Source of the DNA: Myxococcota bacterium
GTDB taxonomy: Bacteria; Myxococcota_A; SURF-8
NCBI GenBank assembly: GCA_965140415.1
Contig: OZ223209.1
Span: 1,952,001 to 2,016,000 of the forward strand
DNA: 64,000 nucleotides
Direction: 5' to 3'
Shown one piece after another: positions 38,235 to 46,234 of the stretch. A program made the position numbers and the translations under genes. The notes under the pieces are model-generated. The model was not told where the DNA came from. It saw nothing but the letters and a program-made list of their open reading frames with translations, and made no database searches. Positions within the stretch are counted from its first letter, which is position 1, and the number at the start of each line of letters is the position of its first letter.

Positions 38235-38663
38235 GAAACCTCTTGATCGGGAGCCTGGCTGTCCGATTGATTCAAAGTGTTACGACATCGCGACGCTGCC
38301 GGTCGCGTACAACTCGGACATTCGCCGGATTCTGTAGCGATGCCCCAAGATACTTAATATCATTTTATCATACTTTATAGAAAGGTTTCAACGGCAATCG
38401 TTGGCTTAAAGCGGGAAAATCTGTGGAAATCGCGAGAAATCGCTCCGCCTGGCGCAGCATCGGCAAGGCAAGCCGAAACCTGCGTGCCGATTACTGCCAT
38501 TTCGACGGTGGACGTCTGGCAGTCCGGGGGAGCAATCCCCCTGTTCCGGCCAAAAGATGACAAACAAAGTCGGTGTGGAAAAAGGTTTGTACTATTTTTC
38601 ATGACCGTGCTATTTTTACCGCACATCAACTTAGTCGAGATCCATTCATGCTGGGGAGTTCAG

Positions 38664-41600
38664 ATGCCGGAAGCGACCGTTTCGATACAGGACTTTATTT
38701 CGCGTTGGAAAACCAGTGGGGCCTCCGAACGCTCCAACTACCAGCTCTTTTTATCGGAGTTGTGCAAGATCATCGGTGTGATGGGACCGGAGCCCAGCCA
38801 GCCCGATAACGAAAAGAACACCTACGTTTTCGAGAAGGCCGTCAGTCAGCACCATGCCGACGGTTCCACCTCGCAGCGTTTCATCGATCTTTACAAGCGT
38901 GGTTGCTTTGTGCTGGAAGCCAAGCAGGGCGCGGAAAAACGCGAGCATGATGAACTTGCCCTGAAATCAAAAAAGCTTAAAACCGGCCACGGTACGCGCG
39001 GCTCGCATGGCTGGGATGTCACCATGACCGCCGCCCGGCATCAGGCGGAAGGGTACGCCAAGGCGCTGCCAGTAGAGGAAGGCTGGCCGCCGTTAATTAT
39101 GGTGGCGGATGTGGGCCACGTGATCGAGGTCTTCGCGGATTTCAGCGGCACCGGTAAGGTCTACCAGCAGTTCCCGGATGCGCAGAACTTTCGCATCTAT
39201 CTGGACGATCTCCAGAAAGATGACGTTCGCGAGCGCCTGAAACTTATCTGGAGCGATCCGCATTCATTAGACCCCGCTAAGCGTAGCGCCGCCGTTACGC
39301 GCGAAGTGGCCGACCGACTGGCGAAGCTGGCGAAAAGCCTGGAAGGCAGCGAGCACGAACCCAAAGTCGTGTCCGAATTTCTCATGCGCTGCCTCTTTAC
39401 CATGTTTGCAGAGGACGTGGGTCTTTTGCCCAAGGACGCTTTTACCCGGCTTCTAGCCGAGTTGAAGGCCGAGCCGAGAAAGTTCCAGCCCATGCTTCAA
39501 TCGATGTGGGCGGATATGGATAAAGGTGGATTCTGCGGCGTGTTGCGCGATACCGTTTTGCGTTTCAATGGCGGCCTCTTTGCCGATCGCACGGCGCTGC
39601 CTTTGACCGGAGAGCAGATCGAACTTTTGGAGCACGCCGCCAAGGCGGATTGGAAAGACGTGGAGCCGCGTATCTTCGGCACCTTGCTGGAGCGCGCCTT
39701 AGATCCTAAAGAACGCCATAAACTGGGGGCGCACTTCACGCCGCGTGCCTATGTGGAGCGGCTGATCGAGCCGACACTTCTGGAGCCCTTGCGCGAGCAG
39801 TGGGAAAACGCCAAAGCCGCCGCGCTGATGGACGCCGACAAGGGCGATTTGAAATCCGCTACCGAGCGCGTCAAGACTTTCCACCGCCTGTTGTGCGACA
39901 CGAAGGTGCTGGACCCGGCCTGCGGCTCCGGCGACTTTTTGTACGTCGCGCTGGAGCACATGAAGCGGCTGGAGGGCGAGGTGCTGACCCTGATGGAGGA
40001 TTTCGGCGTGGAGTCGCGCGGGCTGGAGTTGACCGGCCTGACCGTCGATCCGCATCAGTTCCTCGGCATCGAGATCAACCCCCGCGCTACGGCGATTGCC
40101 GAGATGGTGCTGTGGATCGGTTATCTGCAATGGCATTTTCGCACCAAGGGCAATGTGAACCCGCCCGAACCGGTTTTGCGCGATTTCAAAAATATCGAGT
40201 GCCGCGACGCGCTTTTGGTGTGGGATCGCTGCGAAATCGCCACGGATAAAGACGGCAAGCCCCTTAGCCGCTGGGATGGCGAGACGATGAAGACGCACCC
40301 GGCCACCGGCGAACTGGTGCCGGATGAGACGGCCCGCGTCCCGCAACTGCAATACCTCAATCCCCGCAAGGCCGAATGGCCCCAGGCCGATTATGTCATC
40401 GGCAATCCGCCGTTTCTGGGAAAGGGCGAATTGATACGCGAGGCATTGGGGGACGGCTATGTGGAAGCACTTTGGAAAAATTATCCAGAAATGCCCCGTT
40501 CAGCGGATTTTGTACTGTACTGGTGGAATAAAGCAGCCCATTTGCTGAGAGATGGTAAGCTCAAGCGATTTGGTTTCATCACCACCAACTCAATTCACCA
40601 GACCTTTAACCGGAAAGTCCTTGATAGGCATATGACGGCGAAAGATCCGCTATCCATTCATTTCGCCATTCCCGATCATCCCTGGGTGGATAACACAGAT
40701 GGCGCTGACGTTCGAATTGCTATCACTGTAGCACGAGCTGGGGAATATTCAGGAAACGTAGCAAATATCGAGCGAGAAGTAAAAAGCGACCAAGATACCC
40801 GGATGGTACTGCTTGCAGAAAGCAAAGGAGTAATTCACAGCAATCTGCGTATTGGCGCTGATGTAGGTTCTGCTGTCGCGTTAATGGCTAACCAAAATCT
40901 CAGTTGGAATGGCATTATGACTGCGGGTCGCGGTTTCCTTGTCACGCATGAACAAGCAGAAAAGCTAGGGTTTGGAAAATCGGAGACTCTGAGCAAACGT
41001 ATTCGCCCCTTCATGAATGGACGAGATATCAATCAAACTCCAAGAGGAATGTATGTGATCGATCTTTTTGGATTAGAAATCAAAGAAGTCCAGATGCAGT
41101 GTCCTGATTTGTATCAATGGGTCTACGAAAATGTTAAGCCGGATAGAGATGTAAAAAGGGACAAGAAATTTAGAGAACGTTGGTGGGATTTTGGACGACC
41201 AAGACCTGACTTCAGGAAAGCTACAGAAACCCTTGAAAGATTCATTGCGACGGTTGAAACTTCAAAACACCGAATGTTCGTTTTCCTTTCTTCTGAAATA
41301 TTGCCAGAGCATAAACTGGTGAATATTGCTCTTGATGATGCGTTTTTTCTAGGCGTTCTATCGAGTCGAGCGCATGTATGCTGGGCGTTAGCCTCCGGTG
41401 GTCGTTTGGGGGTTGGTAACGATCCTGTTTATGTGAAATCCAGATGTCTAGACACCTTCCCCTTCCCGGATGCCACGGACGAGCAGAAGGCCCACATCCG
41501 CGACCTGGCCGAGCGCCTGGACGCCCACCGCAAGCAGCGCCAGGCCGAACACGAAAACCTGACCATGACCGGCATGTACAACGTGCTGGAAAAGCTGCGC

Positions 41601-42113
41601 AGCGGCGAGGCGTTGACCAAGAAGGAGCAGCATATTCACGAATGGGCGGCCACAACCGTGTTGAAGGAGTTGCACGACGAGTTGGACGCCGCCGTTTTCG
41701 ACGCCTACGGCTGGCCCGCCGACCTGGACGACGAGGACATCCTGGAGCGGTTGGTGGCGCTCAACCATGAACGCGCCGACGAGGAAAAGCGGGGGGTGAT
41801 CCGCTGGCTCAGGCCCGACTACCAGAACCCGGACGGCCACAGCGCCGCCACGCAGACCGAAGCCGAACTTGCCGAACGCACCCCGGCCAAGGCCAAAGCC
41901 GCCGCCATGAAAAAACGCCCCTGGCCCAAAGCCCTGCCCGAGCAGGTGCAGGCCGTGCGCGAGGTGCTGGCCGAACTCCCGGAAGCGGCCGACGAGGCGA
42001 CCATCGCCAAAGCCTTTAAAGGCGCACGCAAGGACAAGCTTTCCGAAATCCTGGCGACATTGGAAGTTATGGGTGGGGCCAAGCGGACGGATGAGGGTTT
42101 GTGGAGTTGCTGA
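38664..42113 (+). CDS. MmeI-like type IIG/IIL restriction-modification fusion (nuclease + adenine MTase + TRD)
   Basis: N-terminal IDLYKRGCFVLEAK (PD-(D/E)xK), GAHFTP, LDPACGSG motif I, GNPPF motif IV, LHDELDAAVFDAYGW C-terminal motif. ATG 38664 follows GGGGAG. Confidence 0.88.
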   Translation: MPEATVSIQDFISRWKTSGASERSNYQLFLSELCKIIGVMGPEPSQPDNEKNTYVFEKAVSQHHADGSTSQRFIDLYKRGCFVLEAKQGAEKREHDELALKSKKLKTGHGTRGSHGWDVTMTAARHQAEGYAKALPVEEGWPPLIMVADVGHVIEVFADFSGTGKVYQQFPDAQNFRIYLDDLQKDDVRERLKLIWSDPHSLDPAKRSAAVTREVADRLAKLAKSLEGSEHEPKVVSEFLMRCLFTMFAEDVGLLPKDAFTRLLAELKAEPRKFQPMLQSMWADMDKGGFCGVLRDTVLRFNGGLFADRTALPLTGEQIELLEHAAKADWKDVEPRIFGTLLERALDPKERHKLGAHFTPRAYVERLIEPTLLEPLREQWENAKAAALMDADKGDLKSATERVKTFHRLLCDTKVLDPACGSGDFLYVALEHMKRLEGEVLTLMEDFGVESRGLELTGLTVDPHQFLGIEINPRATAIAEMVLWIGYLQWHFRTKGNVNPPEPVLRDFKNIECRDALLVWDRCEIATDKDGKPLSRWDGETMKTHPATGELVPDETARVPQLQYLNPRKAEWPQADYVIGNPPFLGKGELIREALGDGYVEALWKNYPEMPRSADFVLYWWNKAAHLLRDGKLKRFGFITTNSIHQTFNRKVLDRHMTAKDPLSIHFAIPDHPWVDNTDGADVRIAITVARAGEYSGNVANIEREVKSDQDTRMVLLAESKGVIHSNLRIGADVGSAVALMANQNLSWNGIMTAGRGFLVTHEQAEKLGFGKSETLSKRIRPFMNGRDINQTPRGMYVIDLFGLEIKEVQMQCPDLYQWVYENVKPDRDVKRDKKFRERWWDFGRPRPDFRKATETLERFIATVETSKHRMFVFLSSEILPEHKLVNIALDDAFFLGVLSSRAHVCWALASGGRLGVGNDPVYVKSRCLDTFPFPDATDEQKAHIRDLAERLDAHRKQRQAEHENLTMTGMYNVLEKLRSGEALTKKEQHIHEWAATTVLKELHDELDAAVFDAYGWPADLDDEDILERLVALNHERADEEKRGVIRWLRPDYQNPDGHSAATQTEAELAERTPAKAKAAAMKKRPWPKALPEQVQAVREVLAELPEAADEATIAKAFKGARKDKLSEILATLEVMGGAKRTDEGLWSC

Positions 42114-42245
42114 AGATAGGGAAACAGCACCATAACCGAATTGCGCATATTTTTTCCCCCGCCCTGACGTCTTCGCTTTACAAAATGGTGAAACGGGGTA
42201 AGGTCGGCAGGGTGAGTTCAACCCCTTGTTTCAAAGGAAGCCGCC

Positions 42246-42434
42246 ATGCCTGAATTGACCGATACCCAGGTGCTGATTCTCTTCGTTGCCGCCTGGTTCA
42301 TCTTGCAGCGTTTCATTCTGCCCCGCCTGGGCGTGTCCACCTGAATGGCCGAATCCTGTCGCGTGCCGACGGAAAACAAATCCTCCCAAACGGAACCGCA
42401 AGCTTCCGACACAGACGAAGACGAAACGAAGTAG
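42246..42434 (+). CDS. Candidate small membrane selenoprotein, 62 aa, UGA at codon 33 (U-M-A-E-S-C)
   Basis: AAGGAAG RBS, ATG 42246, one TM helix, in-frame TGA 42342-42344, frame continues to TAG 42432-42434. SECIS-like hairpin directly 3' of the TGA. Confidence 0.62.
42354..42373 (+). promoter_or_regulatory. Putative bacterial SECIS element
   Basis: Stem UCC-(bulged U)-GUCG / CGAC-GGA with apical loop CGUGC starting 17 nt after the UGA. Confidence 0.55.
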
Positions 42435-42637
42435 CGCAGGGCAACTTGCTGCATTGCAAGGTTTTAGGGGGGAATCCATTTCCGGGAGGCCGTGTGTAAC
42501 TTAATGAAAACACACAGCCTTCCACGATCTAGGATCGCGTAAGACTATGGCACAAAATCAAGGAATCAGTGGCTATAAATGACGGATACCCAGTTTAGTC
42601 GTTCAGATTGTGCGTGAGCGAAAACCGTTGGGCGAGT

Positions 42638-45139: not shown

Positions 45140-46234
45140 GTGATGCGAATGGCGAATTACGGATGGTGCAAGTATGGCATGATGCTGGCCTTGTTGCTCG
45201 TTGCCTCTCTGGCGATGCTGCAATGTGATGATTCCGGATCCACGGGTGTTGATGGCGACGACACCACTTCTCAATGTGTTTCGCATCAGGATTGCCCCAT
45301 CGGTTTCTCCTGTAATATAACCAGTGGCGTTTGCGGTCAGGATCCTTACGCGGTGCTGTGCACCTCGGATGTCGATTGCAACGTCGATTATACCTGCTAC
45401 ATTTCAGCGGATTCGCTGGATGGCACCGGCAAATGCGTTCCGATTACCGTTGTTGACGGCGATCCGAATATCGGCGATGGCGATACCAGCACGGGATGCA
45501 CGACGGATGACCAGTGCGAAGCCACCGAGTTCTGCTATCAGGGAACCTGCCAGGACAAGAACCCCACCTGCACCGGCAATGCCGATTGCTGGCCGGGTCA
45601 GTATTGTGATCCCACCGATGGCATCTGCAAGGGTGAGATTGTGATTGATGGTGACAAAGACACGGTCGATGGCGATCCGGATGCGGTGATCGATGGCGAT
45701 GATGACAACGTCGTAGACGGCGATCCTGACACGGTTGACGGTGATGAGGATGAACCGGTCGATGGTGACATTCCGGTCGGTCAGCCCTGCGATCGCACCA
45801 GCGACTGCCCCGTTGGCTCTGTCTGCGGCCCCTCGGGTGTCTGCATCGAGCATTGTCAGACTTCCGGTTGCACGGCTCCGGCCCACTGCAACCCCAACAA
45901 TGGCTACTGCGAATACTGTGATCAGACCTGCGCTGCCAGCCAGTGCTGCAACTACAACGTGGACTTCTGGTACTGCGGCGGCTGCTGTGTACCTCCCTGC
46001 TCCGCGGGTAACGCCTGCCAGGCGGGAACCTGCATTCCGTTGCAGTGCCCCACCTGCTCGCCGGGTGAATACTGCGATGGCGCCAACACCGGTTACATCT
46101 GCGTGGACGATCCCACTCAGGACACCGGCGAAGGCGAGCGCGGCAACGTAAGCTGCCTGCCGGCCAACTCCGCCTGCATCGAAGGCGTGGACATCTGTTG
46201 CAGTGGCACCTGCCTGATGGGCACCTGCCTGTAA
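45140..46234 (+). CDS. Cys-rich probable lipoprotein A with DGD linker and C-terminal C-C-CC-C-C tail
   Basis: Signal ending MLQC (atypical lipobox), CxxxxDC units, VDGD repeats, one 22-Cys module, tail CLPANSACIEGVDICCSGTCLMGTCL. Confidence 0.8.
   Translation: MMRMANYGWCKYGMMLALLLVASLAMLQCDDSGSTGVDGDDTTSQCVSHQDCPIGFSCNITSGVCGQDPYAVLCTSDVDCNVDYTCYISADSLDGTGKCVPITVVDGDPNIGDGDTSTGCTTDDQCEATEFCYQGTCQDKNPTCTGNADCWPGQYCDPTDGICKGEIVIDGDKDTVDGDPDAVIDGDDDNVVDGDPDTVDGDEDEPVDGDIPVGQPCDRTSDCPVGSVCGPSGVCIEHCQTSGCTAPAHCNPNNGYCEYCDQTCAASQCCNYNVDFWYCGGCCVPPCSAGNACQAGTCIPLQCPTCSPGEYCDGANTGYICVDDPTQDTGEGERGNVSCLPANSACIEGVDICCSGTCLMGTCL

Follow-up and report, generated by a model that had tools for sequence, protein, structure and literature searches.

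The textbook case of a SelB-binding selenocysteine insertion sequence (SECIS) is that of fdhF. Among eukaryotic selenoproteins, SELENOK and SELENOS are very small single-pass membrane proteins in which an N-terminal helix is followed by a disordered cytosolic tail, with selenocysteine (Sec) placed near the C-terminus. The MerT-like mercuric transport protein, the SaoP permease, YeeE/YedE, and the SO_0444 efflux transporter are larger proteins, multi-helix transporters. All four appear as bacterial membrane selenoproteins in Table 1 of a 2026 review, which lists 119 selenoprotein families (PMC13188914). A further system that bears on the present locus is the YgaP-like transmembrane domain (PF11127, formerly DUF2892); YgaP has a rhodanese domain (PMC4730233). 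The gene described here resembles each of these systems in part. Sequence comparison gives good support to regarding it as representing a candidate new family of bacterial selenoproteins, an addition to a known kind and not a new principle.

The gene lies in a window of 64,000 nucleotides, the whole stretch of DNA that was analyzed, from a Myxococcota bacterium whose genome is a single contig (C1) of 5.98 Mb; the window occupies C1:1952001–2016000. Positions 42246–42434 of the forward strand very probably constitute one gene for a 62-residue selenoprotein that genuinely decodes Sec. A Shine-Dalgarno-like AAGGAA (42234–42239) can be read off the sequence 6 nt upstream of an ATG at 42246. The first 32 codons (42246–42341), MPELTDTQVLILFVAAWFILQRFILPRLGVST, hold a hydrophobic stretch predicted to form a transmembrane helix (residues 6–28, 42261–42329) and the conserved motif LPRLGVxT, and they lead to an in-frame TGA at 42342–42344, the proposed Sec33. 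Another 29 in-frame codons (codons 34–62, 42345–42431), MAESCRVPTENKSSQTEPQASDTDEDETK, then run to a TAG at 42432–42434, the true stop. Within this second part, Cys38 (42357–42359) completes a U-x4-C motif, and an acidic tail that is predicted to be disordered follows. The original prediction had described just this arrangement, a ribosome-binding site followed by an open frame, a TGA, a second open frame, and a TAG, and every element of it is in place. It was also right about why the gene was absent from a list of open reading frames of 60 aa or more: each half is shorter than 60 aa, so the gene escapes such a list.

The UGA at codon 33 would be read as Sec by the genome's own selC, selA, selB, and selD, with SelB recruited by a hairpin downstream of the UGA. 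The genome holds all of these components: a tRNA-Sec gene scoring 69.5 bits, selB (315 bits) about 1.4 kb from the tRNA-Sec, selA (E = 1.4e-135), and two copies of selD (E = 1.3e-117 and 2.6e-106). It also contains a formate-dehydrogenase-like frame with one in-frame TGA, which indicates that the Sec trait is in use there. Like other bacterial SECIS genes, the locus thus combines an in-frame UGA with a G+C-rich hairpin whose loop starts 17 nt past the UGA and carries G within its first two bases, it has Cys homologues aligned at the Sec position, and selA, selB, selC, and selD are present in its genome. It departs from them in lacking a bulged U, in the shortness and weakness of its stem, and in encoding a protein that matches no listed family.

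The hairpin, CUGUCG-CGUGC-CGACGG (42356–42372), pairs C42356–G42361 with C42367–G42372 in 6 bp, one of them U-G. It starts 11 nt past the UGA, and its loop, CGUGC (42362–42366), starts 17 nt past the UGA, with G in second place. The loop distance and the G had both been predicted correctly; the bulged U that had been predicted along with them is not part of the best pairing. The geometry is that of the general bacterial SECIS model, which these hairpins match (PMC13188914, section 5), and the label "fdhF-type" that had been given to the element derives from that geometry only. The folding energy of 42336–42400 is −10 kcal/mol (z = +0.83), a value equalled or bettered by 159 of 200 shuffles. 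The bare hairpin reaches a weak −5.5 kcal/mol. No Rfam family matched; the two chance-level matches obtained (E = 3.6 and 4.5) were neither of them SECIS elements. Taken alone, the window hairpin is no more than chance. Since a single-sequence hairpin of this kind is not significant, the case depends on comparison with other genomes.

With the read-through protein as query, relatives having exactly one in-frame TGA were found in five other genomes (E ≤ 4.4e-6), together with two relatives without a stop; the translated relatives carry either TGA or Cys at the same codon. Of 401 genomes from the phylum, 43 were then matched by a nine-row profile covering the first 38 positions (profile A2). One partial match (G209, E = 0.003) was left out, which gives 42 loci for the counts below, in genomes that span 34 genera. 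The aligned codon is TGA in 35 of these loci and TGT or TGC in the other seven. TAA and TAG were not seen there, in keeping with the expectation that homologues would have TGA or Cys at codon 33. All seven Cys-form loci belong to one family, f12. Three further TGA forms occur in public MAG records titled Myxococcota, Geobacter, and Desulfobacterales, and the gene itself is present, identical to the window copy, in two metagenome contig sets. Ahead of the codon in question, L20, P26, G29, V30, and T32 are invariant in nine homologues, and the invariant core across homologues reads L-P-x-x-G-V-x-T-[U/C].

The TGA forms of the phylum sample fall into two types that differ in what follows the TGA. 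Type A, with 19 members including the gene at 42246–42434, continues U-M-[SA]-x-[SA]-C, so that M-[AS]-x-[SA]-C is conserved after the TGA; the downstream Cys that had been expected to be conserved is found as U-x4-C in 16 of the 19 and as U-x5-C in the remaining three. Type B, with 16 members, continues U-[AT]-V-P-x-P-R-R-S-A-R. Its stand-alone members also have a Cys in the tail in 11 of 13 cases, and in nine of those 11 this Cys lies within the last 7 residues.

Each type has its own hairpin, and in each the pairing is maintained by paired changes. Across nine type-A sequences the same 6 pairs are kept, two of them with double changes. One pair joins the third base of the Cys codon to the first base of a Thr or Ala codon, and it is U-A in six sequences and C-G in three. 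Thus, a silent change in the Cys codon is matched by a Thr/Ala change opposite, as pairing is kept. Across 13 type-B sequences there is a different G+C-rich stem of 5 bp with a GGUC loop, in which 3 pairs show double changes. A search for SECIS elements had been suggested together with the original prediction, and we carried it out with a bSECIS-like scan of our own, which requires 4 bp or more of perfect stem and a loop of 3–14 nt that starts 16–37 nt past the codon and has G in its first two bases. The threshold applied, −7.5 kcal/mol, is reportedly that of the bSECISearch literature. Hairpins at this threshold or better were found in 25 of the 35 TGA forms (mean −9.2 kcal/mol), as against 16% of 1750 dinucleotide shuffles (mean −3.95 kcal/mol) and 0 of the 7 Cys forms (mean −1.2 kcal/mol), a control that is not independent because all seven Cys-form loci come from one family. 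The loop starts recovered by the scan cluster at 17–24 nt. There is a lesson of method here: a weak single-sequence signal turned strong only by cross-genome comparison.

The family is also a large one. A HMMER search with profile A2 against 1.84 billion representative proteins returned 1868 representatives at the cut-off of E ≤ 0.001, 20 of them at E ≤ 1e-10, so that the family comprises at least 1868 clusters at 50% identity. Among the best 150, the residue aligned with codon 33 is Cys in 93 (90 assigned by motif pattern and three by eye). In 83 of the 90 assigned by pattern, it forms part of a C-x4-C motif, mostly T-C-M-S-G-A-C. These comparisons show a widespread family whose commoner form, as judged from the aligned sequences, has Cys at the codon-33 position, and by the same alignment the T-U-M-A-E-S-C of the window gene is the Sec counterpart of the common C-x4-C motif. 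Another 43 of the best 150 end exactly before the aligned position. Most of these are 29-aa calls, and the names seen are all "hypothetical protein," which agrees with the earlier guess that the gene would be annotated as a short protein ending at the TGA. The remaining representatives have W (nine), S (two), R (two), or G (one) at the position. In a single 90% cluster, a 52-aa "W" call stands together with truncated 29-aa versions of that gene; thus, W here is a TGA translated with a different code. Gene callers end the protein at the TGA, and a family model would repair many hypothetical or truncated records. One library member is fused to thioredoxin. A word-index protein search with the read-through sequence found nothing in the range of 34–109 aa, and a search of the ESM Atlas with a Cys homologue (P0024) gave one unnamed cluster at 0.83, which we take as a lead only.

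It is useful to weigh these observations against the view that the TGA is a real stop. The product would then be a 32-residue membrane peptide, the hairpin would be a regulatory or terminating element, and the open frame would be a by-product of high G+C content. Stops are indeed uncommon in genomes this rich in G+C: of the 70 other frames past the TGA, 51 also stay open for at least 19 codons. The hairpin itself accounts for some of the residue conservation downstream of the TGA (CRVPT in one type, PRRSAR in the other), and the hairpin of the window gene has, as stated, no significance of its own. A real stop nevertheless leaves much unaccounted for. The coding frame past the TGA remains open over that length in every one of the 35 TGA forms (median 29 codons). 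The Cys homologues read through the position and retain the second Cys in the proportion given above, and in the type-A TGA forms this Cys is found at +5 or +6 in 19 of 19, even where the hairpin sequence differs. The hairpin has no U tail, and a consensus scan for promoters and terminators found neither, which argues against a terminating role. Its complete absence from the Cys forms is as expected of a SECIS element and not of a terminator. We therefore consider a real stop very unlikely. The main result against the selenoprotein reading comes from G001, a near-complete genome of three contigs from the same family that keeps the TGA form and in which searches found neither selA nor a SelB wing domain, nor any tRNA-Sec scoring above the cut-off. 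This genome retains the gene with an intact hairpin as well as selD, and it has a second TGA-interrupted gene, an FdhA-like frame with an in-frame TGA. The Sec trait may have been lost recently, or a region may be missing from the assembly; either would fit this combination. For a second TGA-form genome, G002, the selA search drew a blank; a SelB wing domain lies at a contig start and a tRNA-Sec scores 50.5 bits, and the missing selA is probably an assembly gap. Overall, 33 of the 35 genomes with the TGA form and all 7 with the Cys form have selA, compared with 247 of all 401, an association that is not an independent statistic because the genomes are related.

Two other explanations keep the TGA as a stop or as an accident. 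The first sees a pair of coupled cistrons, in which a 32-residue peptide is followed by a 29-residue Cys peptide that restarts at the AUG overlapping none of the UGA but directly adjoining it (UGAAUG). ATG is indeed the next codon in the window gene, as it is in 16 of the 19 type-A members. Yet the Cys forms, which have no interruption and require no restart, conserve the Met just as well (T-C-M-S-G-A-C). In the Myxococcota MAG the codon following the TGA is CTC, and among the 16 type-B members two have ATG at this place, the other 14 having GCG, GCC, GCA, ACG, GGG, GGC, or AGC, none of them a usual start. On these grounds we dismiss a restart at the adjacent AUG. The fused relatives, which continue into a DUF302 domain as one frame, speak against two cistrons as well, and we regard the whole arrangement as highly improbable. 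An inconsequential Cys-to-stop mutation in a small, decaying hypothetical protein would suit a gene that is small, unannotated, and without conserved neighbors among its close relatives. Such decay would have to be confined to a single recent clade of TGA forms, and it is contradicted by the finding of TGA at this one codon in 35 of the phylum genomes and in three MAGs of other lineages. The TGA forms are, moreover, followed by a suitably placed hairpin (25 of 35 at threshold) and by an open frame, and the gene is unchanged in the two metagenome contig sets. Decay is thus barely credible. Decoding of the UGA as Sec is the reading on which the remainder of our discussion is based.

The protein would consist of a single N-terminal membrane helix, followed by LPRLGVST-U-MAES-C at the membrane surface and then by a disordered acidic tail of about 24 residues. 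AlphaFold2, run with an alignment of 34 rows, predicts one helix, residues 6–28, at pLDDT 83–93, with the remainder as coil and a mean pLDDT of 70.5. The tail is predicted as coil at pLDDT 53–64; it varies in length and contains many Pro, Ser, Asp, Glu, and Arg residues. Averaged over 42 homologues, the net charge of the flank is −0.83 on the N-terminal side of the helix and +1.21 on the C-terminal side. Under the positive-inside rule, such a pattern suggests an N-out, C-in topology that puts Sec33 and Cys38 at the cytoplasmic surface and the tail in the cytoplasm. We also considered a lipoprotein in which the Cys or Sec is lipidated. A lipobox has the pattern [LVI][ASTVI][GAS]-C and immediately follows a hydrophobic core that carries no charge. 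Here, U/C is preceded by Thr (by Pro in one of the 42 loci), and two Arg or Lys residues lie within the preceding 12 residues, and this candidate was rejected.

Comparison with the described systems shows how far the likenesses go. To SELENOK and SELENOS, the likeness is one of design, taken from their description. In the present protein Sec comes 5 residues past the helix, and the SECIS type and the machinery differ. With the MerT-like protein, SaoP, YeeE/YedE, and SO_0444, it shares a Sec beside or inside a membrane segment and a suspected sulfur or soft-metal chemistry; it differs from them in having a single helix, about 60 residues, and the U-x4-C motif, and none of their models matched. 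The YgaP-like transmembrane domain has a helix that ends in ...LG[IV]xTC at the membrane surface and a second conserved Cys nearby, as does the present family, and rhodanese genes adjoin type-B members of the family just as a rhodanese domain is part of YgaP. The source genome has a YgaP-like member of its own, which ends in FCPLYPVCGVNTC / CPLYPVCGVNTC; ten members were aligned. Comparison by hhalign with the YgaP-like domain gave E-values of 2.5e-4 and 5e-4, with probabilities of 42.8% over 31 columns and 31.7% over 9 columns. PF11127 was not among the Pfam matches at E ≤ 10, and a search of the whole genome with it at E ≤ 1 found four other places, the locus not included. One helix is predicted here as against two there, and the Cys of the CP that precedes the YgaP-like motif is Leu or Ile here, the partner Cys being placed after the Sec instead. 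Given the low hhalign probability, the missing second helix, and the missing CP Cys, this is a resemblance in design and not a demonstrated membership.

Searches of family collections place the protein outside the models they contain. NCBIfam gave no family at E ≤ 10, either for the read-through protein or for its first 32 residues, and none for nine Cys homologues. Pfam gave sub-threshold chance matches only, for the window protein and for the nine Cys homologues, and a sequence-profile search of the PDB stayed at chance level (E ≥ 0.22). Table 1 of the 2026 review (PMC13188914) has no family with this motif or single-helix design; supplementary candidate lists of selenoproteome papers may already include the family. 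The families that the table gives as hypothetical proteins (DG, DW, DF, GOS_B, and GOS_C), as well as TsoA, all have NCBIfam identifiers, and none of those models matched. Literature searches found no paper that pairs a selenoprotein with DUF2892 and none of relevance on UxxxxC. The family would add to the 119 that the table listed in 2026. It would provide a very small bacterial selenoprotein with Sec right at the membrane surface and a lead into DUF302 and DUF2892.

What the protein may do has to be approached through its relatives. In a synteny comparison with the closest of them, no common neighbors were found within 1.5 kb on either side. Any functional inference is thus borrowed from the sister subtype, and none is drawn from an operon for the window copy. 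Around type-B and Cys-fused members, a recurring neighborhood comprises an ECF sigma factor with a zf-HC2 anti-sigma domain, thioredoxin, the small family protein itself, DUF302, and rhodanese. In at least four Cys forms (L046, L060, L063, and L064) the module is fused in frame to an extra domain; another, L044, reads like L046 up to the point where its contig ends. The same extra domain forms a separate ORF after type-B genes (L048, L053, and L061), and Pfam identified DUF302 in the three ORFs scanned. The function of DUF302 is not known, and in the portion of the literature consulted here a link to sulfur oxidation is only speculated (PMC5037610). Together, the DUF302, rhodanese, thioredoxin, and ECF sigma neighbors point to a thiol or sulfur chemistry, and this neighborhood is possibly a regulon for thiol or sulfur stress.

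In the mechanism that we propose, Sec33 and Cys38 would form a selenenylsulfide or selenol-thiol pair at the inner membrane face, and this pair could serve as a thiol-redox element, as a sulfur/selenium relay, or as a soft-metal ligand. We put the chances that its chemistry is thiol/selenol redox or a sulfur/selenium relay at about even, and we think metal binding unlikely. A wider proposal can be advanced tentatively, and it may well not hold: the gene could be among the founders of a large family, as yet without a model, of single-helix membrane proteins of about 60 residues, in which an interfacial [U/C]-x4-C, or a [U/C] together with a C-terminal Cys, acts as a selenol/thiol relay with DUF302, rhodanese, and thioredoxin under the control of an ECF sigma factor, and which may be an evolutionary half of the YgaP transmembrane domain. 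If true, this would offer the first mechanistic handle on DUF302 and DUF2892 and a bacterial design counterpart of the SELENOK and SELENOS micro-selenoproteins. The coexistence of Sec and Cys forms, and of stand-alone and DUF302-fused forms, also constitutes a natural experiment on the choice of Sec over Cys.

Several observations were made beside the main argument. In one type-B variant, all three members (L075 in G266, L076 in G281, and L077 in G361) have a post-TGA frame that continues uninterrupted into a zinc-ribbon protein (MPIYEYRCxxC) that we take to be FmdB-like. This continuation is either a Sec-linked fusion or an in-frame neighbor. FmdB family proteins are listed as selenoproteins (PMC13188914). 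In the window, the ORF directly upstream of the gene (38484–42113, forward strand) encodes 1209 aa that resemble a large restriction-modification DNA methyltransferase and is absent from the loci of the relatives; the ORF downstream, on the other strand, reads as a putative acetyltransferase. Starting 45 nt past the TAG, positions 42480–42597 hold a dispersed repeat of about 103–118 nt that looks like a MITE- or REP-like intergenic element. At least 40 matches to it are listed in its own genome (its own copy and 39 others at 83%–92% identity, with 40 of 90 candidates scored), one of them just past a DUF2892-like gene (C1:318923–319014), and it occurs at very high depth in two metagenome contig sets. 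Farther downstream, at 45140–46234 on the forward strand, lies a gene for a Cys-rich and Asp/Gly-rich protein of 364 aa, which has an N-terminal signal-like segment and repeated C-x-x-x-x-D-C-like units.
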